Virus genome (UHGV): UHGV-2204636
DNA length: 15,617 nt
Origin: a virus
Reading direction: 5' to 3' (one strand)
The notes beneath the pieces are model-generated. The model was not told where the DNA came from. It did no database searches and saw nothing but the letters and a program-made list of their open reading frames with translations. Shown here piece by piece: positions 1 to 15,128 of the stretch; within the stretch, counting starts at the first letter, position 1, and every line of letters begins with the position of its first letter. The translations under genes were made by a program, and so were the position numbers.

Positions 1-8
1 AAGAAATA

Positions 9-38
9 GGGCTTCCACCTGGGAAGCCCTTTCTTTTT
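9..38. terminator. Rho-independent terminator hairpin (GGGCTTCC-loop-GGAAGCCC) with T-run on + strand; may act bidirectionally downstream of pspG
   Basis: Perfect 8-bp GC-rich inverted repeat at 9-16/22-29 followed by TTTCTTTTT on the + strand; on the minus strand it lies ~130 nt past the pspG stop. Confidence 0.5.
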
Positions 39-165
39 ATAGTTCGGCTGTATGTAGGGTACAGCACGATGAATCTGTTAGAGGCGCAATAGTGACAGAT
101 TTGATTATCAATTCCTATTTTGTTCTAAGGATAAAACCTTAGGTTGTGATCATCCGCACAATCCC

Positions 166-408
166 TTAGTAACGCCAGCGGTCATAACGCTGATATTTCG
201 GCACTTTTGGTGCTTTAATCGCCTTAATAACCCACACCACCGCAATCGCCAGTAGTAACCACGGCAGCAACTTAATCATCAATGCCAGCATACCGCCGAG
301 GAACATAATGGCCGTCGCCACAACCAGCGCGGCGATAATGCCCAGCAACGAAACGCCGGTGACCATCAGCATGACAAAAAAGCCAATCACAAAAAGTAGT
401 TCCAGCAT
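166..408 (-). CDS. pspG: Phage shock protein G, small inner-membrane protein (80 aa)
   Basis: Translation from the internal ATG at 408 (MLELLFVIGFFVMLMVTGVSLLGIIAALVV...KVPKYQRYDRWRY) is two hydrophobic helices and matches my recollection of E. coli PspG; GGGAG Shine-Dalgarno 6 nt upstream; the longer ORF to 618 is an upstream in-frame extension with no coding character. Confidence 0.88.
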   Translation of the reverse strand: MLELLFVIGFFVMLMVTGVSLLGIIAALVVATAIMFLGGMLALMIKLLPWLLLAIAVVWVIKAIKAPKVPKYQRYDRWRY

Positions 409-443
409 GATGCACTCCCAAATATGAAATCTCTTGCTGGCAT

Positions 444-459
444 TACAAGAATCATGCCA
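444..459 (-). promoter_or_regulatory. Candidate sigma54 (-24/-12) promoter of pspG: TGGCATG-N4-TTGTA
   Basis: Minus-strand sequence TGGCATGATTCTTGTA about 35-50 nt upstream of the pspG ATG; pspG is known to be PspF/sigma54-dependent. The -12 element is TTGT rather than the consensus TTGC. Confidence 0.45.
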
Positions 460-480
460 AAAATAATCTATTGATTTAAC

Positions 481-511
481 AGCAAAACGCCCCGCGACGG
501 TGCGCAGGGCG
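481..511 (-). terminator. Rho-independent terminator downstream of dusA
   Basis: Minus-strand hairpin CGCCCTGCG-caccgt-CGCGGGGCG (+ coordinates 488-511) followed by TTTTGCT, about 30 nt after the dusA stop codon. Confidence 0.5.
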
Positions 512-541
512 TGGTGAATTTGACTATTTTTTGGTGAAAAG

Positions 542-1579
542 TTAACGCTTATCCGCCACCAGTTTGAGCGCGTGTTCCAGCACATTAATGTCTGCACCCG
601 CTTTATGGGCATTTTCACTTAAATAACGCCGCCACTGCCGCGCGCCAGGAATACCCTGGAACAAGCCCAACATATGCCGGGTAATATGACCGAGATACGT
701 CCCCTGGCTGAGTTCACGCTCAATGTACGGATACATGGCGCGCACTACCGCCACCGGATCGGCATCGATATCCGAGGAACCAAAGATCTCCCGGTCTACC
801 GCCGCCAGAATACCCGGATTCTGATACGCCTCGCGCCCGACCATCACGCCATCCATATGTTGCAGGTGTGCTTTGGCCTCTTCCAGCGACTTGATACCAC
901 CGTTAATCGACATTGTCAGATGCGGAAAGTCACGCTTCAGTTGATACACACGCGGATAATCGAGCGGCGGGATCTCACGGTTTTCTTTCGGACTTAACCC
1001 CGAAAGCCAGGCTTTACGTGCATGGATGATGAACATCTCACACTCGCCTTTGCCGGAAACGGTGTTGATGAAATCGCAGAGAAATTCATAGCTGTCCTGG
1101 TCGTCGATGCCAATACGCGTTTTCACCGTCACCGGAATCGACACCACATCGCGCATCGCTTTCACGCAGTCGGCAACCAGCTGCGCATTACCCATCAGAC
1201 ACGCACCAAACATGCCGTTCTGCACCCGGTCAGACGGGCAGCCGACATTCAGGTTGATCTCATCATATCCACGCGCTTCTGCCAGCTTCGCACACTGTGC
1301 CAGCGCCGCCGGATCGCTACCGCCGAGTTGCAACGCTACCGGATGTTCTTCTTCACTGTACGCCAGGTAATCACCTTTACCGTGAATAATCGCCCCTGTG
1401 GTCACCATTTCGGTATACAGCAACGTATTGCGGGAAAGCAGACGCAAGAAATAGCGGCAATGTCTGTCCGTCCAGTCGAGCATAGGAGCAATGCTAAACC
1501 GAGAATTCCAGTAAACACCAGTTTTTTCAGGCATCACGCTGGTTTGATTAATTTTTTGTGTTTCATGATTATCGTGCAT
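542..1579 (-). CDS. dusA: tRNA-dihydrouridine synthase A; 5' end probably supplied by the integrated element; alternative start at 1534 (MPEKTG...)
   Basis: 345-aa ORF with the Dus TIM-barrel hallmarks ([31 protein letters not shown]); matches E. coli DusA as I recall it. No strong SD before either candidate start. Confidence 0.9.
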
Positions 1580-1611
1580 TTTTGAACATTTCAGGCTATT
1601 TTTCTCGCGTT

Positions 1612-1648
1612 AGGTTCCCGCACAGGTTCCCACGTTTTATGGGAACCC
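1612..1648. promoter_or_regulatory. Three GGTTCCC(A/G) motifs in the dusA-int divergent intergenic region: two direct copies plus an 8-bp inverted repeat GGTTCCCA-N7-TGGGAACC
   Basis: Motif at 1614-1620, 1626-1632 and inverted at 1641-1647, between the divergent dusA and integrase starts; candidate operator or recombinase/RDF binding sites. Confidence 0.3.
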
Positions 1649-1667
1649 GAAATAACGAGGTCGTGTA

Positions 1668-2765
1668 ATGGCGTACTATAACATAGAGAAACGACTAAAA
1701 TCCGATGGCACACCACGCTATCGCTGTAATGTGATTATCAAAGAAAAAGGTGTTATCACTTACAGGGAAAGCAAAACATTCCCTAAACATGCTCATGCCA
1801 AAACATGGGGCACACAGAAAGTGATGGAATTAGATCTATATGGCATTCCATCATCAAATGCAGTTGACGGACTTACAGTCCGTGACTTACTACACAAATA
1901 TTTAAATGACCCAAATGCCGGAGGTAAAGCAGGCCGTACTAAAAGATATGTGCTGGAACTGCTTATGGATAGTGACATCTCCGCGATCAAACTATCTGAA
2001 CTGACAGAAAATGACGTAATTGAACATTGCAGGCTAAGAAACAACGCTGGTGCAGGTCCTGCAACAGTCAGCCACGATGTTAGTTATCTTGGCAGTGTTC
2101 TGGATGCGGCCAAACCTGTATACGGAATTAATTACACATCAAACCCGGCGAAAAGCGCTCGCCCATATCTACTTAAACTTGGTTTGATTGGTAAATCAAA
2201 CCGTCGTAATCGTAGACCAGCATCTGATGAACTGGACATGCTCATTGCAGGCCTTCAACAACGATCTACTCATAAATGCTCAAAAATTCCGTTCGTTGAT
2301 ATCCTCAAATTTTCTGTATGGTCCTGTATGCGAATCGGAGAAGTATGCCGGTTACGATGGGAAGATCTCGACCAGGAACAAAAATCTATACTCGTAAGAG
2401 ACAGGAAAGATCCACGCAAAAAGGAAGGTAACCACATGAAAGTAGCCTTGCTTGGGGAAGCCTGGGATATCGTCCAACGACAGCCCCAAAAATCGGAATT
2501 CATTTTTCCATATAACAGCACTTCTGTTACTGCGGGATTTCAGAGAGTAAGAAGCAAATTAGGTATTAAGGATCTGCGATACCATGATTTGCGTAGAGAA
2601 GGGGCAAGTCGCTTATTTGAGGCTGGTTTTAGTATTGAGGAAGTCGCCCAAGTTACAGGGCATCGTTCATTAAACGTGCTATGGCAGGTATATACCGAAC
2701 TGTATCCGAAATCTTTACATAATCGTTTTGAAGAGCTCCAAAGGAGCAGAAATAAGACCTCTTGA
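1668..2765 (+). CDS. int: Tyrosine recombinase / phage integrase, in the position of a dusA-associated integrase
   Basis: 365-aa ORF with a GAGG SD; C-terminal catalytic signature (...RYHDLRREGASR... GHRSLNVLWQVY) typical of tyrosine integrases; divergent from and adjacent to the 5' end of dusA. Confidence 0.9.
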   Translation: MAYYNIEKRLKSDGTPRYRCNVIIKEKGVITYRESKTFPKHAHAKTWGTQKVMELDLYGIPSSNAVDGLTVRDLLHKYLNDPNAGGKAGRTKRYVLELLMDSDISAIKLSELTENDVIEHCRLRNNAGAGPATVSHDVSYLGSVLDAAKPVYGINYTSNPAKSARPYLLKLGLIGKSNRRNRRPASDELDMLIAGLQQRSTHKCSKIPFVDILKFSVWSCMRIGEVCRLRWEDLDQEQKSILVRDRKDPRKKEGNHMKVALLGEAWDIVQRQPQKSEFIFPYNSTSVTAGFQRVRSKLGIKDLRYHDLRREGASRLFEAGFSIEEVAQVTGHRSLNVLWQVYTELYPKSLHNRFEELQRSRNKTS

Positions 2766-2811
2766 CACTGTTTATCCATACAGTTAAAAATAATGCTGTA
2801 TACAAACACAG
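2762..2811 (+). promoter_or_regulatory. sigma70-type promoter (TTGACA -35, TAAAAA -10 at 17 bp) with a LexA SOS box CTGTATACAAACACAG
   Basis: Perfect -35 hexamer at 2762-2767 overlapping the int stop; CTGT-N8-ACAG with AT-rich spacer at 2796-2811, between the -10 and the RBS (GGAGGG) of the dinI-like gene. Confidence 0.6.
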
Positions 2812-2826
2812 TATGGAGGGACTTTT

Positions 2827-3075
2827 ATGCGTATTGAAATCTGCATAGCCAAAGAAAAAATGACTAAAATGCCAACCGGTGCTGTGGATGCGTTAAAGGA
2901 AGAATTAACCCGACGCATCAGTAAGCGTTATGACGATGTTGAGGTGTTAGTAAAAGCCACCAGCAATGATGGCCTTTCTGTTACACGCACCGCAGATAAG
3001 GATTCTGCAAAAACTTTTGTTCAGGAGACTCTGAAAGATACCTGGGAATCTGCTGACGAGTGGTTTGTTCACTAA
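2827..3075 (+). CDS. DinI-family damage-inducible protein (prophage DinI-like)
   Basis: 82-aa product [11 protein letters not shown]...[16 protein letters not shown] aligns by eye with E. coli DinI (MRIEVTIAK...ETWESADDWFV); strong SD; preceded by a LexA box. Confidence 0.85.
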
Positions 3076-3328
3076 TAAACACGTAAAATCTGTAACGGCT
3101 GGAAATCATTCAATACTCGCACTATCGAAAGTTCACCAGCCAACCGCAGCGCGTTCTTGCATACGACGTGGCTGCGGTCTCAACTCCGTCCCCCACCAAT
3201 CATGATTGGGCAGTACCAGTACAGCACTAGTAAAAACTGGAAATAAGCAGTCTCAGCAAAATACCGGCCAGACGGTGAGAAGACAAAAAAGATACGCAAA
3301 GTAGCCGCGGCCCTTAGTGACATGAAAT

Positions 3329-3349
3329 CCCGCTATACGGGCTTTTTTG
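3329..3349 (+). terminator. Weak terminator-like hairpin (CCCG-ctata-CGGG) followed by CTTTTTTGT
   Basis: Short 4-bp GC stem with a T6 run, inside the 350-bp non-coding gap downstream of the dinI-like gene. Confidence 0.3.
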
Positions 3350-3423
3350 TATCTGCACACGATTGATTATTAGGTCCGTATAGCTAATAGTGGTCTTAAC
3401 CTACATATAGAATCAGAGACTTT

Positions 3424-4119
3424 ATGAAAAAGGAAATACTCAAGGCTCTTTGCCCTACATGCGGTGGGTTACGTAACTGCACTGTGCATGGGAAGCTAAC
3501 CACTAGCTGGGAGGATTCCCAATATCCAGTTTATGGGTACCATTACCATCACCTACTCCAATGCAATGGCTGTGATACTGTCTTCTATCACCACAACGAA
3601 CACTTCAGTGAGCATACTACCCACGAATATCGTGATGGTGAATTTGTAGAAACGCCTATAGATATGATCACTACCTATCCTGCCGCTGAAACATTTCAAG
3701 CTCCGATATGGTTATCCAAGCTTGAATCAGTTGATCGTCAGCTCTTTCAAATATTTAATGAAATGTATTCTTCATATACTTCTGACCATTTCATTCTTTC
3801 GTCCATCGGTTTACGGACGATTTTTGATCGAACTGCTGAACTGTTACAAATTCACCCCGGTTTGCCGCTTGGTGAAAAAGTTGAAAAATTAAAACAAGAT
3901 GGAGTCATAGGCGACACTGAGGCATGCGTTATATCTTCAGTAATTGATGCAGGAAACGCCGCCGCACATCGCAGTTGGAGCCCGAATAAAAGTGAGTTCG
4001 AACAAATGCTAGAAGCTATAGAAAGTTTTGTCCAAAGAACTATCTTGGGCAAAAAATCACTTGAACATATAACCAAACAACTCCCACCTCGGGTTACAAG
4101 ACCTAAAAATAGTGCATAA
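3424..4119 (+). CDS. Hypothetical protein: N-terminal 4-Cys zinc ribbon (CPTC...CNGC) plus C-terminal DUF4145/HEPN-like helical domain; candidate defence or abortive-infection cargo gene
   Basis: 231-aa ORF, visibly AT-richer than the flanking tail genes; CxxC-N32-CxxC plus a His-rich stretch at the N-terminus; C-terminal LGEKVEKLKQDGVI...IDAGNAAAHRS resembles the conserved core of DUF4145 as I recall it (unverified). Confidence 0.75.
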   Translation: MKKEILKALCPTCGGLRNCTVHGKLTTSWEDSQYPVYGYHYHHLLQCNGCDTVFYHHNEHFSEHTTHEYRDGEFVETPIDMITTYPAAETFQAPIWLSKLESVDRQLFQIFNEMYSSYTSDHFILSSIGLRTIFDRTAELLQIHPGLPLGEKVEKLKQDGVIGDTEACVISSVIDAGNAAAHRSWSPNKSEFEQMLEAIESFVQRTILGKKSLEHITKQLPPRVTRPKNSA

Positions 4120-4145
4120 TCCGCGATCATCAATGTGGCGTAAGG

Positions 4146-4702
4146 CTATGGTTTACTTGCTACAGGGAATTTTTTATACACCGTTGAAATACCCAGATCA
4201 TAAATCAGTGCGACTTGCTGCTGATATATTCCCGATTCAATCAACCTGCCAGCCTGCCCCCATTGTTCTACTGTCAGCTTTGGCTTTCGCCCACCGTTCC
4301 TCCCTTCTTGTCGTGCTGCGGCAAAGCCGCCCTAGTACGTTCGACAATAAACTCTCGCTCCATTTCAGCCAGGGCACCCATCACATGAAAGAAAAAGCGC
4401 CCCATTGGTGTGCTGGTATCAATAGCATCCGTCAGGCTGCGAAAATTAACGCCACGTTCGCGCAACTCTTCCACCAGCACGACAAGATGCCGCATACTGC
4501 GCCCCAGTCGGTCCAGTTTCCAGACCACCAGCGTGTCACCTGCCGATAATGTCCTGAGCAGCTTTTTCAGTCCTGGTCTGTCGGACTTTGTACCGCTTAT
4601 CTTGTCTTCAAAAATCAGCTCACATCCTGCACAGTTCAACGCATTACGTTGTAGATCGGTGTTCTGGTCATTTGTTGATACGCGAACATAGCCAATAAGC
4701 AT
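4146..4702 (-). pseudogene. pin: Serine recombinase / DNA invertase of the Pin/Gin/Hin/Cin family, interrupted by a 1-nt frameshift near 4320-4323
   Basis: Frame A (4322-4702) encodes MLIGYVRVSTNDQNTDLQ...GRFFFHVMGALAEMEREFIVERTRAAL (catalytic domain, Ser in VRVSTNDQ). Frame C (4146-4322) encodes AAARQEGRNGGRKPKLTVEQWGQAGRLIESGIYQQQVALIYDLGISTVYKKFPVASKP (HTH domain), matching e14 Pin. Total length 557 nt is not a multiple of 3. Confidence 0.7.
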
Positions 4703-4731
4703 GATAGCTCCTCCTGACAAAAACAGGAACG

Positions 4732-5103
4732 ATGCCATTTGCGCGCTATTTCTGCATTTTCATAAACGTTGGTTTGGGAGAAGCGGCAAAACGGAATGTG
4801 GGAACAGGGAAAAATCAGATACCTGATATGTCAGCTTATTCATCAGGATCTGGCTGGCAAAAATTGCCTGATGGTTCAATTGAACAGTGGGGAAGAATTA
4901 ATTTCCCGTATAACGCCGCGGCGGTATCTACAAATGTGACTTTCACCATTCCTTTTACGCAGGAGCCAGACGTAGTGATTGTATATGACGGCGGTTTTGG
5001 TGGTGGGAATATGTGGGGCGCAACTAACTGGACGAAAACAGGTTTCGTTGCTCATTGTAACTATGGCTTTGAAGGTGGAGCCTTCTACGCGAAAGGGCGT
5101 TAA
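4732..5103 (+). CDS. Silent alternative tail-fibre C-terminal cassette (Sv'-like); the ATG at 4732 is probably fortuitous, the cassette is expressed only after inversion
   Basis: ORF shares the VGLGE junction with the expressed fibre gene at the crossover site, then diverges (AAKRNVGTGKNQ...); no independent N-terminal fibre domain. Confidence 0.55.
   Translation: MPFARYFCIFINVGLGEAAKRNVGTGKNQIPDMSAYSSGSGWQKLPDGSIEQWGRINFPYNAAAVSTNVTFTIPFTQEPDVVIVYDGGFGGGNMWGATNWTKTGFVAHCNYGFEGGAFYAKGR
4757..4782. other. Invertase crossover site (gix/pix-like 26-bp imperfect palindrome), invertase-proximal copy
   Basis: TTTTCATAAACG-TT-GGTTTGGGAGAA; its reverse complement shares TTCTCCCAAACCAA with the site at 6573-6598; resembles hix/gix half-sites. 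Confidence 0.55.
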
Positions 5104-5105
5104 TT

Positions 5106-5546
5106 ATGAAATATTTGTATGTTGATAATCTGGCGTACCCTTATGCCCTCCAGTCTGTTTACGCTGCAAAAGGCCAATGGCCCGAAGGTAAAGGCGTGGA
5201 TATAGACGAAGCTATTTTCAGGGAATATTTCCATGATACGCCGCCTGACGGTAAGTACAGAATTACCGGAGACGATGGAATGCCAGCATGGGCAGATGTT
5301 CCACCGCCAACACGTGAAGAACAAATTGCATCAGCCGAAACTAAAAAGCAGCAATTGATTAATCAGGCCAACGATTATATGAACAGTAGACAATGGGCTG
5401 GTAAAGCGGCTATTGGTCGTCTGAAAGGTGAGGAACTGGCGCAATATAATTTGTGGCTGGATTATCTGGACGCACTGGAGCTGGTCGATACTTCCAGTGC
5501 ACCAGATATTGAATGGCCTACTCCTCCGGCAGTTCAGGCCAGATGA
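5106..5546 (+). CDS. Tail fibre assembly protein (Tfa / Mu U'-like), partner of the silent cassette
   Basis: 146-aa product with the conserved Tfa C-terminal motif (...NLWLDYLDALELVDTSSAPDIEWPTPP); immediately follows the cassette ORF. Confidence 0.85.
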   Translation: MKYLYVDNLAYPYALQSVYAAKGQWPEGKGVDIDEAIFREYFHDTPPDGKYRITGDDGMPAWADVPPPTREEQIASAETKKQQLINQANDYMNSRQWAGKAAIGRLKGEELAQYNLWLDYLDALELVDTSSAPDIEWPTPPAVQAR

Positions 5547-6120
5547 CATCCGGCGCGGTGCTGGTATCTGTTGCCGTCACCGCGTCAATGTAATCCAGCA
5601 CAGCGTTAAGTCGGGTTGTTTCTGCCTGCGTCAACTTCCGTCCGGCCTGTAATTTCAGCTGAATCAGACTAATGGAAGCCATTGCTGCATCAATCAGTGA
5701 CTGGCGCTGTGCTTCTGCTGCGTCTACTGCGGCACTATGCTGTGCCTCAGTATCCGTCACCCATTTCTCACCATCCCATTTATCGTATGGCGTTAACGGG
5801 GCGATAGTGGTTGTATTTTCGGGGTAATCACCCAGAGCTGTGATTTCTTTGGCGTCTCCCGTTTCGGTGTTATAGACGATTTCACCGCGATGGTCTGGCA
5901 CATATTCCCATGAGTTTAAATCTGCCGAACGGCAGATTGCATAACCAGCCTTATGTATACCAGGTTCATCCAGACAGGAATATGCCGGGATACCAACACC
6001 AACGGCAAGATATTCATTTGAAGTGGAAATATATTCCCGAGTTTCACCATCATAGCTATAGACGGTAATATCCCCCGCCTTCGTGGCAATAAGCTCGCTA
6101 TTTAATACAGCGTTATCCAT
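5518..6120 (-). CDS. Tail fibre assembly protein (Tfa / Mu U-like), partner of the expressed fibre
   Basis: 200-aa product with C-terminal ...LNAVLDYIDAVTATDTSTAPDVIWPELPEE motif; convergent with and overlapping the U'-like gene by 29 nt. Confidence 0.85.
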   Translation of the reverse strand: MDNAVLNSELIATKAGDITVYSYDGETREYISTSNEYLAVGVGIPAYSCLDEPGIHKAGYAICRSADLNSWEYVPDHRGEIVYNTETGDAKEITALGDYPENTTTIAPLTPYDKWDGEKWVTDTEAQHSAAVDAAEAQRQSLIDAAMASISLIQLKLQAGRKLTQAETTRLNAVLDYIDAVTATDTSTAPDVIWPELPEE

Positions 6121-6878
6121 TATTCAGCCCTCACGATAAAGTTAAATGCAATATTTCGCGCACGTGTTTCCGTTGATGTTCTGGCAACAAGTGATGCATC
6201 AAAATAATAATTCGCCTGTTTATATGTACCACCTATCGCAATTGGTGTGAGATTTGGTTGCACTATTGAAGAGGTAAATGCGCCGAAAGTATTATTATTT
6301 GTCCCCGTGGTCATATCAAAAAAGCTACCTGTAATATTTTGCAGCGTATCGCTCTGAGCACTCAATAACGCTCGCCCACTGTCCACTCCACGCCCATCAT
6401 CCCAGCCACGAATAAACTCACCCCGCAGATCTGGCAGCACAAGACCGGGGTAAACCAGTGCCAGCTTCGGATAATTTTTAGCTGCAAATGGAGCGCCGTT
6501 ACATTTCAGCCATCCTGTTGGTGGAGTGGCTAAAGGCCACGGAACAGGCACACCAACGGGTAATGCCGAACCTTCTCCCAAACCAAGATTTCCGAGAGCC
6601 GTTTTCACGGTGCCATCCGATTTGATATCGCCAAACGGATTTGAGCGACTCAGTAACAGCGCGTTTAGTGCTGTTAATAACTGGTTTTTTTTAGAAGGAT
6701 CAACATTAATACCGGCAGCGTTCAGGACAGTAATAAGCTCCGACTGCGCATCTCTGACAGCCCCCTGCACGTTATTCAGATGCTCAGCATCAACAATGGT
6801 CCCCAGCTCACCTGTGAGCGGATTACCATCATGGAAAAGATTATCCGGCGTCTGCACCGGTGGCATTAAGGGCCGCAT
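6120..6878 (-). CDS. Tail fibre protein (constant N-terminus about 6586-6878 plus currently expressed variable C-terminus 6120-6585)
   Basis: 252-aa ORF; start overlaps the stop of the upstream gene (TAATG); contains the crossover site at the GLGE codons. Confidence 0.85.
6573..6598. other. Invertase crossover site (26-bp imperfect palindrome) inside the tail fibre gene
   Basis: TTCTCCCAAACC-AA-GATTTCCGAGAG; inverted relative to the site at 4757-4782. Confidence 0.55.
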
Positions 6879-7450
6879 TATTCATTCTCCTGATATGCGA
6901 AGTAGCAAAATGTATGGGCTGGTTTGAGATCACGGAAGACGTCTTCAATAATCGGATCACCAAACGTTGTCAGGCGCTCACCTGCAGCTGAACTGCCTGA
7001 GCGAAAGCGATAGGATTGAGTTCCTGAGTTCTGAATATTGACGCGCCAGACCCAGATAATGTCTTCAACCCAGAGGCGATCACCGGCGCGGCCAACTCCC
7101 GCCCTGAAAGGTTGCGGTTCATCAATTGTGATGATGTAGCCAAGGTTGCTTGCCAACTGAGTAAAGTACGGAATACTGAGACCACCGACTTCAGCCAGTT
7201 TAGCCAGTACACGCTGCTGGCGTTGCTGGTATGTCGCACCTTCAGCAGGAGTAAGGTCCAGGACGCGTTCCCAGTCATACAAAAGGCTGCGTGCATAAAA
7301 TGGAGTAACTCCACCTTCAACAAGCCCTGCAGACGCATCGAGAGTCTCAAAAACACCTGATTCAGATCGCAATGATGCATCAAGCAGAGGCTGGCCCGGG
7401 CTGTACGAAACAAGTGGCAGCAGACGATTTAACAGCGTGAAGTAGCTCAT
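6878..7450 (-). CDS. Phage tail/baseplate protein, Mu gp48 / YmfQ (DUF2313)-like
   Basis: 190-aa ORF translationally coupled between the baseplate J-like gene and the fibre gene, the position occupied by gp48/YmfQ in Mu- and e14-type tails. Confidence 0.75.
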
Positions 7451-8514
7451 AGCAGCTCTACCTCAACGTTTCCTAATTTGAGCCATTCGACTTTCGTGGC
7501 ATCGATTATCGGTTGAATATTTGCCGATGGTGTAACGATGTCATAGTCGGTAATACCCGGAATTAGAGAAATCAATGTCCCCGCCTGGCTGCGAATAAAA
7601 GCCACTCCAGGCTCTCGGCGCGAGTCATCGTCCTCCAGCGTTCCGGCGACAGCCTGTTTGGCTGCTGCGAGGGTGATGCCCTCCAGTGATACCTTCACGA
7701 GGACGTCAAATGTACGGATGACAGGTATGAGCACCAGCGTGTTTTTTGCTGTAACAGGCCGGACATCGTCAATGTGAGCCTGCACCCTGTCGATCACATC
7801 CTGAGATGGCAGCCCACCTGCAGACGTGATCACAACATCAACGGTACCCGGCCCCCGCCGCAAAGGGTAAACATATGCGGCGGATACGCCTGATACCTCA
7901 AGCGCCCAGCGTTTGTAATCATATTTATTGCCGCCTGCAGGAGGTCGGCGGATGATTTCAAGCAGACGAGCAAGCAGCTCTGCATCCGTTTCCTCATCTG
8001 TTCCGCCAGTCATCAGGCCTACTGTCACTGTGCTGTCAAACCCATCAGGTGTTGTGGTCAGTGTGGCCGATGTGACGGAAGTGGTGTTACCAGTGGTTCC
8101 GGCCAGAGAAGACACTGCGTTTACCGATGATTTTCCATCTGACCCGACAATAATATCTTCGGTTGTTGTCCACGAAACACTGTCGCGTTTGAACACAAGA
8201 CCGGCAGCGGCCACCGCTCCTGGTTCGCCGGTAAACGTGGCAGGCCCGGAGGCGCTGTTGGCTGCTTTTTTGCTTAAACCACGTAAACGGGCGTGCAGAT
8301 AGAGGAATTCCGAATCAGCAGTATCCGGAAAGATCTGACGGACTATCCATCCCTGATGCTGATAAAGCCCCTCGGCAACACTGGCTACACTCGATGCCCG
8401 GATGTACCAGTCGCTGTCCGGGCCCAGCGTATCATCTGACAACTGCAGGAGATTTTTGATATCCCGCAGAATGTCAGTGCGTATTTGCGCGGCATTTTTG
8501 GTAATGAATGGCAT
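7447..8514 (-). CDS. Baseplate J-like protein (Mu gp47 / P2 gpJ family)
   Basis: 355-aa ORF; position and size fit baseplate J; 4-nt overlap with the downstream gene. Confidence 0.8.
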   Translation of the reverse strand: MPFITKNAAQIRTDILRDIKNLLQLSDDTLGPDSDWYIRASSVASVAEGLYQHQGWIVRQIFPDTADSEFLYLHARLRGLSKKAANSASGPATFTGEPGAVAAAGLVFKRDSVSWTTTEDIIVGSDGKSSVNAVSSLAGTTGNTTSVTSATLTTTPDGFDSTVTVGLMTGGTDEETDAELLARLLEIIRRPPAGGNKYDYKRWALEVSGVSAAYVYPLRRGPGTVDVVITSAGGLPSQDVIDRVQAHIDDVRPVTAKNTLVLIPVIRTFDVLVKVSLEGITLAAAKQAVAGTLEDDDSRREPGVAFIRSQAGTLISLIPGITDYDIVTPSANIQPIIDATKVEWLKLGNVEVELL

Positions 8515-8864
8515 CAGCTGACCTTAACCGGATATTTCCAGGTCTGCGGCGTTCCGCTCGCAGACGTGACGGTGATATGAAGCAGCATCCAGCCTTTTTG
8601 CCAGTGCTCTGCAGTAACGGAAATGGACTGGGCGCGACCGTCGTCAATAATCGGTTGCAGGGCCTGCCGCGAATACTGCACCGCGAGTTGTTGAACGCGA
8701 GACACATCCTTTTCGCGGCGGAGTGTATGCAAAAGAGAGCCCAGAGTTGGATCAGCCCACCATGAGCCAAGGGGCGTCATCAGCCGTAAGTAGACGGCAT
8801 TCGCTAAAGAGTCTGAGCTGTCGCCGGTATAATCGCCGGTCGTTGGATCAATCAACATTTCCAT
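8514..8864 (-). CDS. Baseplate protein, Mu gp46 / GP46-family (gpW/gp25-like)
   Basis: 116-aa ORF directly upstream of and overlapping the baseplate J-like gene; start region lies in a hairpin, so the exact start (8864 or 8858) is uncertain. Confidence 0.7.
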   Translation of the reverse strand: MEMLIDPTTGDYTGDSSDSLANAVYLRLMTPLGSWWADPTLGSLLHTLRREKDVSRVQQLAVQYSRQALQPIIDDGRAQSISVTAEHWQKGWMLLHITVTSASGTPQTWKYPVKVS

Positions 8865-8953
8865 GCCGTAATACTACCGGCATGGAAATTTAAATTATCG
8901 GTGAAGGGGTTCAGTGGGTATTGCTTTTGAAGGAGAACTTACGTTACCACAAA

Positions 8954-9559
8954 TTACATTTGCTGATTAGGTTTCTGCGTTGTGCCTGCATCACCGCCGT
9001 GGTCGTGGTCGTGACCGTCATAAGTCTCACGCATGGTGTTCAGCGTAGACTTGCCGTCAGCGACTTCATTACTGCCTTTCAGCAATGGTGTATCAAAATC
9101 TGCCCGCTCTGAGGCTGTGGTTTTATACGTTTTGGTATTAACAATATGTTGTTCGGTATTCACCGTGTGCTTTTTAGTATTAACGATATATTCATCGCAG
9201 TTTACTTCAATTATTTTTCCGCGCTTCAGAATAATGTTGCTTCCTTCATCCGAATAAATGGCAAGCTCACCACTTTTCAGGCTCTTTAGCCTGTATGCAG
9301 CGTGTTCCGTGGCAATCACCACGCTATGACTGGTGCGCCCGTTAAGCGGGAGCACAATGGCTTTAGTCCCCCTGGGCGGGTTGGATGTAAAACCGTACTG
9401 CTGAAACATCTCCACATCCTGCAAAGACTCAGTGGCCAGACCTTTACCCTGAATGGTCTGAATATCACCACCGCTGTTAACCCTTATTAAAACGCCCCTG
9501 AAGGCCTTTCTTATACGGTTTAACGCCGTGTTAATACGAGAGTCAATTTTGTTCCACAT
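8954..9559 (-). CDS. Baseplate assembly protein V / spike (Mu gp45-like)
   Basis: 201-aa ORF following the hub gene; His/Asp-rich C-terminal tip (DGHDHDHGGD) typical of spike proteins. Confidence 0.75.
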   Translation of the reverse strand: MWNKIDSRINTALNRIRKAFRGVLIRVNSGGDIQTIQGKGLATESLQDVEMFQQYGFTSNPPRGTKAIVLPLNGRTSHSVVIATEHAAYRLKSLKSGELAIYSDEGSNIILKRGKIIEVNCDEYIVNTKKHTVNTEQHIVNTKTYKTTASERADFDTPLLKGSNEVADGKSTLNTMRETYDGHDHDHGGDAGTTQKPNQQM

Positions 9560-10760
9560 CGATAATCTCCAGCTCTTTATTTACTTTGGCGCGACGCTTA
9601 CGTGATTTGCGTTTTTTCGGATAAGCATCCGGTATCCATATTCCATCCTCTTTGAGCCGCAGGGTGGTAATGGTGTTGTCTGGACGACCACCTGAAAACT
9701 CTCTTCCCATGAGGAAGTAAATGTCATCAATGCCATGTGGCTCGCTTCGGACACGAATACGCTGGCCCGGTTGCCATAACTGACCGTTCTCCATGCGATG
9801 GCCTTTAACAATTACTGTCAGATCAAACCCGTTCAGACGGGCGTCAGCCATGGCCTTTCTCGCGCGATAATCAACCTGCGCCTGATTATCAGCATCACCA
9901 GCAACCATAATCTGCGGACGATAGAAAGGTACGGTACTGTCGCGAACGGTACTACGTAAGCCATGAAAGCCATTCTCTGCAGAGCCGGTGCTGTCATAAA
10001 TTGCGTCGGCATCATCATCGTCTTCAGCCTCAGCGCTCTGATCATCAACGTCAATAACTTCCAGTCTTCCTGACTTTTTCCCCTGGCCGTGTCCCTGTGC
10101 CAGCATTGTCAGTTCAGAGAACGCACCGGTAATGGATGACCGGTCACTGAGATCGAGGACATTATTTCCCCGACCGTCACGATTCAGAACAAGCGTGGCT
10201 ACAGGGTCTTTTGTGTAATCCGGCCCTCCAATTACCAGCGTGCCATCTGGCTCAAACCATGGCCATAACCCGCGTGCAGCAGCTGCACGCTCAAGGGTAT
10301 CCCACGCACGTTCTCCGGGCTCCACGCTGACCTTGTCATTACGCAGGGATGACTCAGCCTCGATGCGGATGTTCGTTATCCCCAGCGGTCTGACAACCTG
10401 GGCGATCACCTCTTCAAGACTGAGCTGGCGGGAGGTAAAAACGGGTGAAGCGCAGTCAACAAGCACGGCTGCACCATCGCGACCGGAAAGAGATAAAGAA
10501 ACCTGCTGACGGGATACCCGGCGCTGAACCACATCCACCCGACCGGACATGACAACATCATTACCCACCCTGACCAGCACCGGCACACCACGTTTAATGG
10601 CCGGAGGGAAAATACCATCAGGCAGCCCAAGCGTTACGCTCCATGCATCGGAGGGGATCAGAAAATCGGAGTCAATCTGATAGCGGCTCCATGCACTATG
10701 GATTTTGCCATCAATAACCAGGCTCACTGTATTCTGCGAATCTTTATCTTGAGTAGGCAT
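9543..10760 (-). CDS. Baseplate hub / tail protein (Mu gp44, phage late control D family)
   Basis: 405-aa ORF overlapping its neighbours by 17 nt on both sides; conserved position between the DNA-circularisation protein and gpV-like genes. Confidence 0.8.
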   Translation of the reverse strand: MPTQDKDSQNTVSLVIDGKIHSAWSRYQIDSDFLIPSDAWSVTLGLPDGIFPPAIKRGVPVLVRVGNDVVMSGRVDVVQRRVSRQQVSLSLSGRDGAAVLVDCASPVFTSRQLSLEEVIAQVVRPLGITNIRIEAESSLRNDKVSVEPGERAWDTLERAAAARGLWPWFEPDGTLVIGGPDYTKDPVATLVLNRDGRGNNVLDLSDRSSITGAFSELTMLAQGHGQGKKSGRLEVIDVDDQSAEAEDDDDADAIYDSTGSAENGFHGLRSTVRDSTVPFYRPQIMVAGDADNQAQVDYRARKAMADARLNGFDLTVIVKGHRMENGQLWQPGQRIRVRSEPHGIDDIYFLMGREFSGGRPDNTITTLRLKEDGIWIPDAYPKKRKSRKRRAKVNKELEIIDVEQN

Positions 10761-12075
10761 TCAGAACGTCACCGGCTTTGATATTGTTAGGATTACGTAG
10801 TGTCGGATTGAGACGCAGCAACTCGGCGGCGCGCGTGTAGTCCTCATACCACAGGTGGGCCAGCAAATGCAGGTTTGTGTCGGACAATACCACTCGCGTA
10901 GTCAGTGGTGGTCTGCTGGTAATAACCGCTGAGCCCAGCTCCTGAACGGTCAGGGCGATATCCTTGAGACCTTCAACCACGGGTTGCCAGGTCACGCCAC
11001 CCGGTGTTTCACCGGCGCTCACGTTTTGCGTATCGGCAGCAAAGGTGTCCCGCGTCTGGTCGATTGCCGTCTGAATGGCCGTCCTGGTGTCGTTGGTGAT
11101 CTGCTCAATATCGACTGGAGACAGAATATCGCTGATGCTGCTGTCACTGAGTATGTCGGAAGCATCAAGCGCCAGCTGGATTGCAACCTGGATTTTTACC
11201 GCCGTTACCAGCTCAGTAATATCCGAGGTTGATGAGCCTGCCGGAACAGCAACAGCAACAGTCTTTTGCCCTGTCACTATCTGCTGAGGTAATGCGGCCA
11301 CATCCTGCAGATTGTTACGGCCATTCTTCCAGTCGGCCATCACGATGCCCGCTGTACCGGAAACGTCTGAGGACTGTGAATAGCTTCCTGGGTTATTACT
11401 GACACTTGATTTGGACTGAAGCGACGTCAGACTCAGCGCACTCTGCAGGTCATTCATGAACGATTTTGGGTAATTAACAAAATCCGAGGTGGTACTGACA
11501 AATCCCGTCAGTTCCCCCTTAAGCACGGTCACCATATTCAGCGTCGTGGTTGCCAGCGATTTCGCTTTTTTCATCCACTTTTTCGCTGTACGCAGAGGCG
11601 AGAGAATATTGTCGATGGCCGTCTGGGCTTTCTCCAGAGCGGATTGCGCCTGGTTGAAAACGATATCAGCTTTCGACAGCGGGAAATCGCTGCCAAAGAA
11701 AGGCAGATTAAGTCCCCCCTGGATAAAGACCACTTCGACAACGCAGTAATCAACGTTCTCCGCTTCATGCGATGCCTGATACTCAATGCACTGCATGCCC
11801 GTCATGGAGCCGAAAACGGGATGAATTAATTCTGCGCTACCGCGAGTATCCAGTGCGGCCAGAAACGCCTGCAGCCGCACATCATAATCATCACCCCAGA
11901 AAAGGACTGTCATCCGCAGGTTACGAGGCTTGCGGCCAAGATCATCAACATCACCACCGTCGACATAGGGATACTCATACGTCGCAATGTCGCGACTGGC
12001 GCTGTCACGGGTATTAACCACATCAAAGCGGACGCCCCTGAATGAGGCATCCTGTAATGAATCTTCCCAGCTCAC
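10744..12075 (-). CDS. DNA circularisation protein (Mu gp43 / N-like)
   Basis: 443-aa ORF immediately downstream of the tape measure gene (4-nt overlap), the canonical position in Mu-like tails. Confidence 0.75.
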   Translation of the reverse strand: MSWEDSLQDASFRGVRFDVVNTRDSASRDIATYEYPYVDGGDVDDLGRKPRNLRMTVLFWGDDYDVRLQAFLAALDTRGSAELIHPVFGSMTGMQCIEYQASHEAENVDYCVVEVVFIQGGLNLPFFGSDFPLSKADIVFNQAQSALEKAQTAIDNILSPLRTAKKWMKKAKSLATTTLNMVTVLKGELTGFVSTTSDFVNYPKSFMNDLQSALSLTSLQSKSSVSNNPGSYSQSSDVSGTAGIVMADWKNGRNNLQDVAALPQQIVTGQKTVAVAVPAGSSTSDITELVTAVKIQVAIQLALDASDILSDSSISDILSPVDIEQITNDTRTAIQTAIDQTRDTFAADTQNVSAGETPGGVTWQPVVEGLKDIALTVQELGSAVITSRPPLTTRVVLSDTNLHLLAHLWYEDYTRAAELLRLNPTLRNPNNIKAGDVLNAYSR

Positions 12076-14213
12076 TGCGGGCCTCCTGTTGAGCCGCGAA
12101 CGGATTGTTCGCCGTTGTATTCATTAACAGCTGATGCAATTTCACGTCCGTCTAATACCAGCTTTGTGGTGAGGTTAATGGGCTGTGATTTTTGTTGCTG
12201 TTGGGGCAAAAGATAAGACGGCACGCCTGTTGTTGCTGGTGTGTTTTGCCCCATCGTGGCCGGAGAACTCCACCATGATTTGACCTCATCCACGACATCC
12301 AGCAATCCGGGGCGGGCTTTTACTGCATCCAGCATGCGTGCTGACTCACTGGAATAGTTGTCAACCTTAAGCCGCGCACGTGCATCAGCATCACCTCGCT
12401 CAACATGAACAAGTGGCGCATCCTGCATACCCTGATAGAGGGCCAGTGGGGCTAATACCTTGCCAGCTCCGCCACGAATAACGGACCAGGCACGCCCAAG
12501 AGCAGATCCCCCTGCAGTCGGCACTCCACCGCCAGGAGAACCAGGCATTTTTATTCCGCCGCCAGTAAGGAAGTTGAGCCCGGCAAAAGCTACAGCCGCC
12601 GCTGTCATGGCTTTAATGCCCGTGGTGGCACCTGAAATAGCAGTTGTTAATTCAGGATATTCTTTAGCGTAATCAGAAAGTTTTGACGTCAAATCACCAT
12701 ATAAATCGGCGACAGGTTTCATTGCATCCTGCTCAGAGAACATTTTCTCTGATTCAAATTGTTGTGATTTAAAATCATTAGTTGATGAGATCACATCATA
12801 TGAAGCAGCACCAGCGCCAACGGAATCACGCGTTCCTGAAATCTGCTCCTTAATGAAGTCTTTTTTCATTATGCTTGTTTTTAGTGCGGTACTGGCCTGC
12901 TGGTCAGCAACTATTTTCGATGTAATTGAGGAAACTATAATATCCAGTGAGGCAAGGATATCTTTCTCCTTGTCCGTCCCTTTAAATTTCGTAGCCTGAG
13001 CCCGTAATTTCTTCACTCGTGGGTCGGCTGAAACAATACCTGATACTGCATTGGTGAATGCATCAGAAGTATTTACGCCTGAAAGTCGCTGGTCAGCCAT
13101 ATAATCAGCATAGGCAAGCATCCTTCCGTCTTTAGTCCTGAATCTTTTATTTTTTAACGCATTCTGAGTGTCAGCACTGGTGTATTTATCAAGCAGGTTA
13201 TTAACGTTTGTTGATGCAGCGCTATTATCACCTGCTGTTTCAGCGTTAGCCTGTAGCATTGCGAGAATTACATCCAAATCTTTTAACCCTGACATACCTA
13301 CAGCGTTAGCTTTTGTCATGGTTAAAGGTAATGAACCAGCCATATCAGCAAGTTCATATTTACCATTCTCACCAGACCTGATGGTTTTATCAAATACCGC
13401 TGGCAAATCCTCAGCCTTTATATCAAAGTTCTTAATTGCACCAATAGCAATACGAGCAAGGTCATTAGGGTTTGCACCTGAGGCCGTAGCATAACGAGTA
13501 ATATCCGGCAGGATTTTTAATGCCGTTTTATCATCAAGACCACCTGCGAAAAGCGAATTAATAGTTTCCTGTGCAGCCTCCGGTGTTCCACCGCCATAAC
13601 GAACAGCCCCACGGATTGCATTATTGATCTCAGGTATTTTCTTAATACGGTCTGGCGCTGAGAGGTTGTTATAAGCGGTATTTGCAATCTCAGCATTACG
13701 CCGTTCGTAAGCCATCTGACGCTGAACCGGGTCTTTTATAATCATACCCGCAGCAGTTAACCCACCGGCTACTGCTGCCACGGTTGAACCTGCAGCACGG
13801 AATCGCTGCATGCGCGTCATTGAGTCATTGACGCCGCCAAGCTCAGTTCGCAGCGCTTTGACCCTGTCAGTCATGGCCCTGAAAGCCCGGTTCTGCTCAT
13901 TTGCGGACAGCATACCTGTGCGGGTAAGGCGATTATAGGCCGCCATGGTCTGCTGTATTTCGCGCTGTATTTCGCGCTCTGAGCGAATGCCAAGAGTTGC
14001 TCGCGCCGAACTGGCGCGACGGTATTCCTCAATCAGAGAACGGGAGGCACGAATCGCTGTGGTTGAGTTCTGCTGACGGGATTTCGCCAGCTCATCATCG
14101 GTTTTTTGCGCCGCTTTGGTATCCCGGCTGATGCCCTGGAGTGCCTGTTTAAGCACTTTGGAGCCGGTATCACGGGCAAGCAGCTGCAGCGCCAGTTGTA
14201 AGTTACGCGCCAT
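12072..14213 (-). CDS. Tail tape measure protein
   Basis: 713-aa ORF, Ala/Gly/Gln-rich and predicted helical, with a GGAG SD; preceded by the chaperone gene and its frameshift extension. Confidence 0.85.
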   Translation of the reverse strand: MARNLQLALQLLARDTGSKVLKQALQGISRDTKAAQKTDDELAKSRQQNSTTAIRASRSLIEEYRRASSARATLGIRSEREIQREIQQTMAAYNRLTRTGMLSANEQNRAFRAMTDRVKALRTELGGVNDSMTRMQRFRAAGSTVAAVAGGLTAAGMIIKDPVQRQMAYERRNAEIANTAYNNLSAPDRIKKIPEINNAIRGAVRYGGGTPEAAQETINSLFAGGLDDKTALKILPDITRYATASGANPNDLARIAIGAIKNFDIKAEDLPAVFDKTIRSGENGKYELADMAGSLPLTMTKANAVGMSGLKDLDVILAMLQANAETAGDNSAASTNVNNLLDKYTSADTQNALKNKRFRTKDGRMLAYADYMADQRLSGVNTSDAFTNAVSGIVSADPRVKKLRAQATKFKGTDKEKDILASLDIIVSSITSKIVADQQASTALKTSIMKKDFIKEQISGTRDSVGAGAASYDVISSTNDFKSQQFESEKMFSEQDAMKPVADLYGDLTSKLSDYAKEYPELTTAISGATTGIKAMTAAAVAFAGLNFLTGGGIKMPGSPGGGVPTAGGSALGRAWSVIRGGAGKVLAPLALYQGMQDAPLVHVERGDADARARLKVDNYSSESARMLDAVKARPGLLDVVDEVKSWWSSPATMGQNTPATTGVPSYLLPQQQQKSQPINLTTKLVLDGREIASAVNEYNGEQSVRGSTGGPQ

Positions 14214-14216
14214 GGA

Positions 14217-14740
14217 TTATCTCCGTTTGCCGACTTTCTTCCGGCGTTGCGATTTGACAGTGCGGGTTGTGCGGGTGGTAGTTTGCCCGGTTTTCTTTCC
14301 ATGTAACCGGGCAAGTGCTTCGGTGTAGCCGTCGAGTTCCGTTCGGGTCATGCTTCCGATTTGTTGTTCACTGATACCGTATCGCCCGAGGGCGAGGACG
14401 AGGGTTCGGTACCCGGTGAGCTTTTGTTCAAATCCATCCGCTTTTTTTTAATGGCTTCAATCTGAGCATCGATGAGATCGAAATCATCATCATTCAGCTC
14501 GTTAAGGAGCAGCTCCGCCGTAATTTCTTCCTTTGGCACATCTCCGAGGGCAGTAATCGCACACGCCATTACCGCAACACGGTAATACATGTTTGCGGCT
14601 GCGCCTTCGGTAGTGCCGCAGGCTTCATCGGTTGCCCGCAGCGCTTCAATGGTATCGCTCACCACAGGCAGCCTGACGGCAAAGTCAAAATGGACTTTAT
14701 CACCGTATTTAACGCCATATAAAAGCTGCTGCTTTTCCAT
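14217..14740 (-). CDS. Tail assembly chaperone, -1 frameshift-extended isoform (G-T / E+E' analogue)
   Basis: After the slippery site the -1 frame stays open for ~76 codons (ADGFEQKLTGYRTLVLALGRYGISEQQIGSMTRTELDGYTEALARLHGKK...KRR) and stops at 14217-14219, one codon before the tape measure ATG. Confidence 0.5.
14348..14740 (-). CDS. Tail assembly chaperone (lambda G / P2 E / Mu gp41 analogue), zero-frame product
   Basis: 130-aa acidic ORF between the tube and tape measure genes; contains an A AAA AAG slippery heptamer near its 3' end. Confidence 0.75.
   Translation of the reverse strand: MEKQQLLYGVKYGDKVHFDFAVRLPVVSDTIEALRATDEACGTTEGAAANMYYRVAVMACAITALGDVPKEEITAELLLNELNDDDFDLIDAQIEAIKKKRMDLNKSSPGTEPSSSPSGDTVSVNNKSEA
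14441..14447 (-). promoter_or_regulatory. Programmed -1 ribosomal frameshift slippery heptamer A AAA AAG
   Basis: Minus strand reads GCC ATT AAA AAA AAG CGG in the chaperone frame (dnaX-type heptamer). Confidence 0.5.
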
Positions 14741-15115: not shown

Positions 15116-15128
15116 TCTGGTTTACTCC

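Follow-up and report, generated by a model that had tools for sequence, protein, structure and literature searches.

A DinI-like gene that lies between a phage integrase gene and inserted downstream DNA, behind a LexA box, raises the question of what this gene is wired to do: modulate the RecA of its host, tune the switch of its own prophage, or simply lead a transcript whose real payload lies further downstream. The gene was examined in a window of 15,617 nt (the whole stretch analysed, from virus genome UHGV-2204636), which contains part of a prophage integrated into a chromosome of the E. coli type. The integrase gene (1668-2765, plus strand; Pfam Phage_integrase, E = 8.4e-21) is of the dusA type; dusA itself (542-1579, minus strand; Pfam Dus, E = 2e-104) adjoins it on one side and the dinI cassette follows on the other. 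The integrase stop codon, TGA at 2763-2765, falls inside the -35 hexamer of the dinI promoter (2762-2767), and the integrase shares 98% identity with the int-dinI module of phage mEp460. An initial annotation, made by reading the sequence, had described a DinI-family ORF next to an integrase, and this description was correct: the ORF is prophage-borne, and the positions given for the -35, a LexA box at 2796-2811, the RBS and the ORF were all recovered exactly. The interpretation attached to them is, as a whole, partly supported. Positions 2762-3179 probably constitute a horizontally mobile SOS cassette of ~420 bp that comprises a dual-LexA sigma-70 promoter, a gene of the dinI family and a structured 3' end, and from which DinI would be produced when DNA is damaged.

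On the plus strand, the promoter has a TTGACA -35 hexamer at 2762-2767, identified by a promoter scan (10 of 12 matches) and annotated as such in mEp460 and VT1-Sakai, and a -10 region, TAAAAAT, at 2785-2791, which is weak whether read as TAAAAA with a 17-nt spacer or as AAAAAT with an 18-nt spacer. The transcription start is predicted near 2797-2799, and a Shine-Dalgarno sequence, GGAGGG, is readable at 2815-2820, 6 nt before the ATG at 2827. Two exact matches to CTGT-N8-ACAG overlap these elements. Box 1, CTGTTTATCCATACAG (2768-2783), abuts the -35 hexamer and fills the spacer between the -35 and -10, and box 2, CTGTATACAAACACAG (2796-2811), covers the predicted start. Box 2 is the LexA box that had been noted between the TTGACA and the RBS, and it is real; the accompanying picture of LexA control through a single site does not stand, box 1 having been overlooked.

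The two matches to CTGT-N8-ACAG in the 15.6-kb window, both in the dinI promoter and within one 44-bp stretch, compare with an expectation of 0.26. Boxes were scored with a weight matrix derived from 38 distinct boxes upstream of distant dinI orthologues (44-51% identical), used in place of the exact Lewis heterology index. Box 1 (19.8 bits) and box 2 (18.2 bits) rank first and second in the window, the next best 20-mer scores 2.1 bits, and the classical uvrA-ssb box scores 19.0 bits on the same matrix. Relative to the 20-mer LexA consensus TACTGTATATATATACAGTA, box 1 has 5 mismatches and box 2 has 4. Among 28 distinct promoter variants from close relatives, the CTGT/ACAG half-sites and the -10 region are the least variable positions, changing at 0.014 (box 1), 0.005 (box 2) and 0.011 (-10) per position per sequence, as compared with 0.23 for promoter positions not assigned to any element.

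The same order of elements, -35, box 1, -10, box 2, RBS and ATG, is shared by E. coli, Shigella, Erwinia, Mixta and Trabulsiella; Pantoea has it too, with a box 2 that is degenerate. Box 1 directly follows TTGACA in all six genera, and 13 of the 14 listed promoters with two boxes retain the hexamer. The TTGACA-CTGT start is retained while the box-to-box spacing drifts from 24 to 29 bp across genera, which makes cooperative, phase-dependent binding of LexA unlikely. More widely, a CTG-N10-CAG box occurs no more than 120 nt upstream in 73 out of 80 diverse dinI loci, drawn from different species; the background rate is 0.04 per 120 nt. That the boxes are chance palindromes, in a promoter outside LexA control, is an explanation to which we give next to no credence: its sole point in favour is that LexA binding here is inferred from homologues, and against it stand the excess of matches, their confinement to 44 bp and their retention across genera even though the flanking sequences diverge. 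Judged by sequence, LexA-type operators appear to be present at this promoter far beyond chance. As detailed below, homologous promoters are subject to LexA control, from which we infer that the cassette promoter is also bound by LexA and SOS-inducible.

The ORF at 2827-3075 (plus strand) encodes 82 aa and matches Pfam DinI (PF06183) with E = 1.1e-19 and 71 bits, against a cut-off of 24.2, over profile positions 1-63 of 63. It also matches PHROG 189, 'RecA filament binding protein DinI' (E = 1.4e-30), and PDB entries 1GHH/7YWA (E = 3.8e-13 over residues 1-81), with 49% identity to E. coli DinI (1GHH). The residues through which E. coli DinI contacts the RecA filament have been established by cryo-EM: a pocket of L13, L21, W71, W77 and F78 and an acidic patch of E24, E69 and D76 (PMC9926225). 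In an alignment, L13/L21/E24/E69/W71/D76/W77/F78 correspond to M15/L23/E26/D71/W73/E78/W79/F80 in the prophage protein, so that all eight positions are kept, five as identical residues and three as conservative replacements. By homology, the prophage protein is expected to bind RecA. The chromosomal dinI genes of E. coli and other Enterobacterales, members of the same family with the RecA contacts in common, are likewise under LexA control, from a box that precedes the ATG by 33-41 nt. Most of them have one strong box in a different promoter context, in contrast to the paired boxes and the fixed TTGACA-CTGT junction of the prophage clade. A preprint on chromosomal dinI and lexA (bioRxiv 2022.08.08.503262) was set aside as a precedent, as its subject is not the cassette.

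DinI-like modules also occur in phage antirepressors. Tum of coliphage 186 and the split tum of PSP3 and Fels-2 resemble the gene described here in being LexA-controlled phage genes with such a module, and Tum-type and DinI-type proteins share the 151-position profile of PHROG 189; in Tum, the DinI-like part is the second half (PMC3121763). The 82-aa protein could, on these grounds, be an antirepressor of the prophage repressor and not a RecA modulator, but this is highly improbable. The whole of Tum spans about 146 aa, and the protein here has no counterpart of its N-terminal, antirepressor half; the match to PHROG 189 is limited to positions 71-149, the DinI half, which does not fit a protein of the Tum type. 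Furthermore, the RecA-contact residues are kept, the S24-type repressor encoded by relatives is cleavable, which would make an antirepressor superfluous, and the activity in PSP3 maps to the separate upstream gene and not to the DinI half, according to a personal communication cited in PMC3121763.

The cassette, from -35 hexamer to terminator hairpin, is sharply bounded. Homology with the cassettes of other phages begins at 2759-2762 and ends at 3145-3182. Of 5,426 complete E. coli genomes, 1,409 (26%) contain a near-full copy, with copies in up to eight places in one genome, and the cassette is found in prophages of the lambdoid, Stx and Mu-tailed types, integrated at dusA, yehV and elsewhere. 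The Stx1 phage VT1-Sakai (AP000400; gene H0001), mEp460, cdtI, SKA5 and many Stx1/Stx2 phages carry the same cassette, 89-98% identical in nucleotide sequence from the -35 to ~100 nt past the stop codon, and in the same position, next to the tail-fibre genes at the end of the prophage. What sets the window apart is a dusA-type integrase fused to the cassette and, on the far side, a DUF4145 insertion. The VT1-Sakai record marks a promoter in front of dinI and, at the site homologous to box 2, a 'putative SOS box'; records of this type annotate this one box and leave box 1 unannotated. Box 1 of VT1-Sakai has CTGG where the window has CTGT.

[quoted passage not shown] 2011, PMC3121763), in which a prophage dinI homologue also directly follows a LexA box. 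Their regulation by LexA was established by experiment (PMC3121763, PMC8072944): expression increases 23-, 14- and 4.6-fold, respectively, with nalidixic acid (PMC8072944), and the DinI protein accumulates after mitomycin C (PMC3121763). LexA control has also been reported for the dinI of PhiKO2, as cited in PMC7556043. The Gifsy-1 protein is 42.5% identical to the protein here, and the Gifsy genes have one LexA box in the early-right region, as opposed to two boxes at the prophage end. The Gifsy operon also carries an antirepressor gene and irsA, and neither has a homologue in the window; tblastn with STM2621.1n (GfoA-like antirepressor) and STM2620 (IrsA-like) of Gifsy-1 gave no match in the window better than E = 3.

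The right end of the cassette is structured. Immediately downstream of a conserved TAAAAT, an alignment and consensus fold predict a first stem-loop in the 3'-UTR (3097-3141, plus strand), with a GGCUGG/CCAGCC stem and the invariant loop CAUUCAAUACUCGCACUAUCGAA. It is followed by a second, terminator-type hairpin (3142-3179, plus strand), which forms the right end of the cassette and is marked by compensatory pairs. Given the indels in this hairpin among 93 variants of the element, folding was done sequence by sequence and not from a global alignment; 191 of 201 copies retain the hairpin, with many different stems. Many relatives have T-rich tails after the hairpin, and the copy here lacks a U-tract. 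Between E. coli and Pantoea, this 3' element is more conserved than the dinI coding region, and it also occurs without dinI, in the b region of lambda (24162-24265). By eye, neither a -35 nor an extended -10 that would give the element its own promoter was seen in the dinI or the lambda context. Searches of Rfam found no family in the window at gathering thresholds, and chance, sub-threshold matches alone at E <= 5 in 2700-3450; no literature was found on small RNAs between ea31 and ea47 of lambda. There is a slim chance that the element of ~85 nt (3097-3179) is a functional RNA, SOS-inducible from the dual-LexA promoter. It may then be a regulatory RNA derived from the 3'-UTR, as is DinR of Klebsiella, or a retroregulatory processing site, and the payload of the cassette would in part be RNA. 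In the case of DinR, derived from the 3'-UTR of Klebsiella dinI (PMC10907235), the 3' end of the dinI transcript is likewise conserved and structured, and closes with a terminator hairpin. The two have no sequence relationship, the element here has no Rfam match, and, set against DinR, it occurs without dinI as well.

Downstream of the cassette, a gene at 3424-4119 (plus strand) encodes a DUF4145/zinc-ribbon protein (Pfam DUF4145, E = 8.8e-10; PHROG 1305, E = 5e-43). The initial annotation regarded it as an orphan gene that read-through from dinI might co-induce. The anatomy of the region does not support this. The gene is inserted cargo, has no LexA box of its own (CTGT-N8-ACAG, whole window) and lies behind two hairpins, the terminator-type hairpin of the cassette and a short hairpin at 3329-3348 (plus strand; CCCG-CUAUA-CGGG, then C and UUUUUU), recognized by sequence and fold as a possible second terminator; its stem was flagged by the scan on the minus strand. 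With these two hairpins in the way, co-induction of the DUF4145 gene with dinI is unproven and, on balance, unlikely. PADLOC returned no match for either the DinI-like or the DUF4145 protein.

A broader form of the same idea is that the LexA promoter is mainly an SOS switch for a downstream payload, here the DUF4145 gene, in a Gifsy-like operon. In Gifsy, dinI is indeed the first gene of an antirepressor operon (PMC3121763), and the VT1-Sakai record names a 'putative promoter of H0001 and H0002 genes'. The missing U-tract of the hairpin after dinI could favour read-through, a simple scan found no plus-strand consensus promoter in the gap between dinI and the DUF4145 gene, and the only plus-strand promoter match nearby is inside the dinI coding region. 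We nevertheless consider such a switch unlikely. The DUF4145 segment is an insertion of ~980 bp that is absent from cassette-bearing relatives of the SKA5 type, in which sequence matching 4162 onward resumes ~10 bp after the cassette and for which the SKA5 annotation includes no DUF4145 gene. At least 80% of an int-dinI-DUF4145 query is present in just 29 genomes, as against the 1,409 with the cassette, and both hairpins, the second with its six U residues, intervene. The Gifsy-1 antirepressor and IrsA searches were, as noted, negative, and the 46-aa ORF that follows dinI (3065-3205) has no PHROG match; these results do not fit an operon of the Gifsy dinI-antirepressor-irsA type.

The preferred explanation is thus a self-contained cassette with DinI as its product. 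In an undamaged cell, LexA dimers on box 1, in the spacer, and on box 2, over the start, would exclude RNA polymerase from a promoter that, without LexA, would otherwise be strong. Following DNA damage, active RecA would stimulate self-cleavage of LexA, both operators would be freed and DinI would be produced. This prophage DinI would supplement that of the host in dampening the co-protease activity of RecA, a negative feedback on the SOS response, and possibly also limit cleavage of the S24-type repressor of the prophage. The immunity region lies outside the window, and this repressor is known from relatives: E. coli LWY6 and phage SKA5, both close, encode an HTH + Peptidase_S24 immunity repressor, which makes it plausible that a RecA-dependent repressor is open to influence by extra DinI. 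Relatives of the prophage also encode a 105-aa protein that corresponds to the DNA-binding domain of LexA alone; on a more remote and improbable reading, it would be uncleavable and could shut the two operators again late in induction.

A further question is whom the cassette benefits. The initial annotation proposed that the gene tunes repressor cleavage and so the timing of induction. The S24 repressor of relatives provides a plausible target, but prophage induction was not significantly altered by non-polar deletions of dinI in Gifsy-1 and Gifsy-3 (PMC3121763), so that tuning is unproven even in the best-studied case. With the Gifsy-1 protein just 42.5% identical, this precedent binds the two-box clade only loosely, and any effect of the cassette on induction timing is speculative. 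The Gifsy result also fits a different beneficiary: extra SOS-induced DinI might spare the lysogen some of the mutagenesis and toxicity of the SOS response, for instance during exposure to quinolones, making the cassette a moron whose selective benefit has little link to the phage's own switch. Movement of the cassette independently of phage type and attachment site, and its frequency and copy number in E. coli, agree with this, and a prophage DinI-like gene is among the accessory genes associated with the evolution of quinolone resistance (PMC10575684). Every host, however, already has a chromosomal dinI, and the molecular mechanism is the same as in the preferred explanation and differs just in who profits. 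We regard a benefit to the host as a genuine possibility, although we lean against it.

Prophage dinI genes behind LexA boxes are common among enterobacterial prophages and have been described before, and what the present analysis adds is modest: two operators instead of one, in a layout that extends across genera, and a cassette with sharp boundaries, of which roughly one in four complete E. coli genomes contains a near-full copy. The idea that prophage dinI copies influence the SOS balance is likewise already in the literature. If the proposed mechanism is true, every copy of the cassette adds SOS-induced DinI, and many E. coli have several; after exposure to antibiotics such as quinolones, the balance between repair, mutagenesis and the induction of lambda-type prophages, Stx phages among them, could then shift.

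The promoter of the 82-codon dinI-like ORF (2827-3075, plus strand) starts with a -35 hexamer, TTGACA (2762-2767), that encloses the stop codon (TGA, 2763-2765) of the tyrosine integrase gene (1668-2765, plus strand). The initial annotation placed this hexamer, a LexA box CTGTATACAAACACAG at 2796-2811, the GGAGGG at 2815-2820 and the ATG at 2827, and these coordinates are exact. The LexA box is, however, not single, as a second, CTGTTTATCCATACAG (2768-2783), had been overlooked. This box 1 directly adjoins the -35 hexamer and fills 16 of the 17-18 spacer bases ahead of the -10 sequence, TAAAAA or AAAAAT at 2785-2791. The centre of box 2, the box originally reported, lies 28 bp beyond the centre of box 1, and box 2 spans the predicted transcription start. 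The 15.6-kb window contains two matches to CTGT-N8-ACAG, both in the dinI promoter, with 0.26 expected by chance. With a weight matrix derived from 38 distinct boxes upstream of distant dinI orthologues, the consensus of which is the classical TACTGTATATATATACAGTA, boxes 1 and 2 score 19.8 and 18.2 bits, respectively, the next best 20-mer of the window 2.1 bits, and the well-known uvrA-ssb operator (in comparison locus L002) 19.0 bits. The original LexA-box observation is confirmed and improved.

In 73 of 80 dinI-family loci from different species, a CTG-N10-CAG box is present in the 120 nt that precede the start codon; its background frequency in the flanks is 0.04 per 120 nt. Of the seven boxless loci, at least six (Yersinia) appear to be downstream operon genes and may represent a split-tum arrangement. 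Loci with a protein 55-98% identical to that of the window share the layout TTGACA, box 1, A/T-rich -10, box 2, ribosome-binding site and ATG; they are found in E. coli, Shigella, Trabulsiella, Erwinia and Mixta, and in Pantoea with a degenerate box 2. The distance between the boxes varies from 24 to 29 bp across these loci and, judged from this sequence comparison, such drift suggests that the two operators act independently and not through phase-dependent cooperativity. In 28 distinct close promoter variants, the rate of change per position and sequence is 0.005-0.014 for the -10 and for the half-sites (eight positions per box), compared to 0.23 for unassigned promoter positions. The loci L104-L164 have single-box dinI promoters, many of which are flanked by the two arms of an inverted repeat, CCCCCTGTTG ... 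ACAGGGGG, with the ribosome-binding site within the 3′ arm (for example L164, Salmonella, -70 to -1). These appear to be chromosomal dinI genes, and the repeat is absent from the prophage dinI clade.

The encoded protein belongs to the DinI family, as annotated initially, scoring 71 bits against Pfam DinI (cut-off 24.2) and matching PHROG 189 ‘RecA filament binding protein DinI’. With E. coli DinI (PDB 1GHH/7YWA) it shares 49% identity. In the RecA-DinI cryo-EM structure, L13, L21, W71, W77 and F78 of DinI form the pocket that takes RecA F203, and E24, E69 and D76 an acidic patch (PMC9926225). The HMMER alignment gives M15, L23, W73, W79 and F80, and E26, D71 and E78, as the equivalents, so that five of the RecA-contact positions are identical and three conservatively replaced. 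A Tum-type protein, as in phage 186, was considered and rejected, because the protein aligns with PHROG 189 solely in the C-terminal half of the profile, the DinI half, and therefore lacks the antirepressor half (PMC3121763).

The window starts in E. coli-type chromosome with dusA (542-1579, minus strand; Pfam Dus, E = 2e-104), the 5′-end of which is the integration site of a prophage (window 1-1667). At the far prophage end in relatives (L166, and annotated also in SKA5) there is a leftover dusA 5′ fragment, and this is the arrangement of dusA-integrating prophages. With L166, the host lexA-dinF locus is seen ~4 kb past that other end. Downstream of dinI are a DUF4145 gene (3424-4119, plus strand) and a Gin/Pin-type invertase gene (4146-4738, minus strand) adjoining the tail-fibre segment; to its right are tail-fibre genes, followed by additional minus-strand ORFs with matches in relatives to Mu-type baseplate, DNA-circularisation and tape-measure genes. 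The invertase ORF has just 154 aa, and RefSeq lists its identical counterpart in E. coli 730V1 and a related copy in LWY6 as frameshifted pseudogenes, so the invertible tail-fibre segment may be locked. The window is nowhere contiguous in the complete E. coli genomes of the collection, where at most 50% of it is covered at a single place; its bases 1-6641 match other prophages than bases 6772-15617 do, and the prophage is therefore a mosaic unrepresented in that collection.

Wherever the neighbour is not a dusA-type integrase, homology with other phages starts at 2759-2762, the -35 hexamer, and it stops at 3145-3182, delimiting a cassette of ~420 bp. The lambdoid phage mEp460, in which the promoter is annotated, carries the cassette, 98% identical including the integrase. 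SKA5, cdtI and dozens of Stx1 and Stx2 phages have it as well, mostly at the prophage end beside tail-fibre genes. Among 5426 complete E. coli genomes, 1409 have a copy (≥80% covered), and in some genomes at least part of the cassette is matched at up to 8 places. The ~85 nt downstream of dinI (3097-3179) fold as two stem-loops, SL1 and SL2. Of 201 copies, 191 retain the SL2 hairpin, with a wide variety of stems, and the SL1 loop, CAUUCAAUACUCGCACUAUCGAA, is invariant, Pantoea included. Identity between the window and Pantoea is 87% in this element, compared to 70% in the dinI coding sequence and 42% at third codon positions. SL2 is a covarying terminator hairpin, but termination does not explain the SL1 loop. 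Phage lambda also has the element, which matches no Rfam family, between ea31 and ea47 of its b region (minus strand, 24162-24265), and at least 120 IMG/VR contigs contain it, mostly with no dinI ORF upstream.

The DUF4145 gene, initially called an orphan and proposed to be reached by read-through from dinI, lies within a ~980-bp insertion (3183-4161) missing from SKA5-type relatives, in which sequence matching 4162 onward resumes ~10 bp past the cassette; the SKA5 annotation has no DUF4145 gene. The insertion looks like variable cargo that separates the invertase from the dinI cassette. The protein matches PHROG 1305 ‘DNA binding protein’ but nothing in PADLOC, and two CxxC pairs at its N-terminus suggest a zinc ribbon. 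Two hairpins precede the gene, the cassette's own (3142-3179) and a short CCCG/CGGG stem followed by U6 (3329-3348), and the CTGT-N8-ACAG search of the window found no LexA box nearby, so the proposed read-through is without support. The first terminator looks weakened in the window, as the U-tract next to it in mEp460 and loci L087 and L088 is replaced by UCUCAACUCC; co-induction of the DUF4145 gene with dinI is for this reason conceivable, although unlikely.

LexA bound at box 1 would keep RNA polymerase out of the -35/-10 spacer, and at box 2 would block initiation. RecA-stimulated LexA cleavage would release this promoter with its perfect -35, and DinI would then occupy the RecA filament groove, where LexA, UmuD and lambda CI also bind (PMC9926225), reinforcing the damping of RecA co-protease activity by the host's DinI. 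An effect on prophage repressor cleavage is possible, as two close relatives, phage SKA5 and the E. coli LWY6 prophage, the latter with the same site and int-dinI-DUF4145 order, encode an HTH plus Peptidase_S24 repressor. This first half of the initial interpretation is reasonable and its read-through part weak. Non-polar deletion of the Gifsy-1 or Gifsy-3 dinI, however, did not significantly affect induction (PMC3121763), and an equally good reading is that the cassette favours the lysogen rather than the phage switch, for which there is one reported association with quinolone-resistance evolution (PMC10575684). Close relatives also encode, outside the window, a 105-aa protein (L166:30440-30757 and L165:8484-8810, both minus strand) that is a LexA DNA-binding domain alone (Pfam LexA_DNA_bind, E = 2.8e-19; 51% identity with residues 1-68 of the host LexA). 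Having no cleavage domain, it might work as a non-cleavable LexA and restore repression at SOS boxes, both dinI boxes among them.

Upstream of dinI, the VT1-Sakai record (AP000400) labels a ‘putative SOS box’ (LexA protein binding), which is homologous to box 2, as well as a ‘putative promoter of H0001 and H0002 genes’. For the more distant Gifsy homologues, LexA control has been demonstrated by experiment, as mitomycin C induction is lost when the LexA box is replaced and DinI protein builds up upon mitomycin C (PMC3121763), and the three Gifsy dinI genes are induced 23-, 14- and 4.6-fold by nalidixic acid (PMC8072944). The din-like gene of PhiKO2, likewise adjoining a tail-fibre gene, is reported as LexA-regulated in work cited in PMC7556043. 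In the records and literature consulted, we found no annotation or mention of a second operator in the prophage dinI clade. Given the VT1-Sakai annotation, the Gifsy experiments and the PhiKO2 report, SOS-controlled prophage dinI is an established kind of feature, and the cassette is an ordinary, widespread and previously annotated SOS unit.
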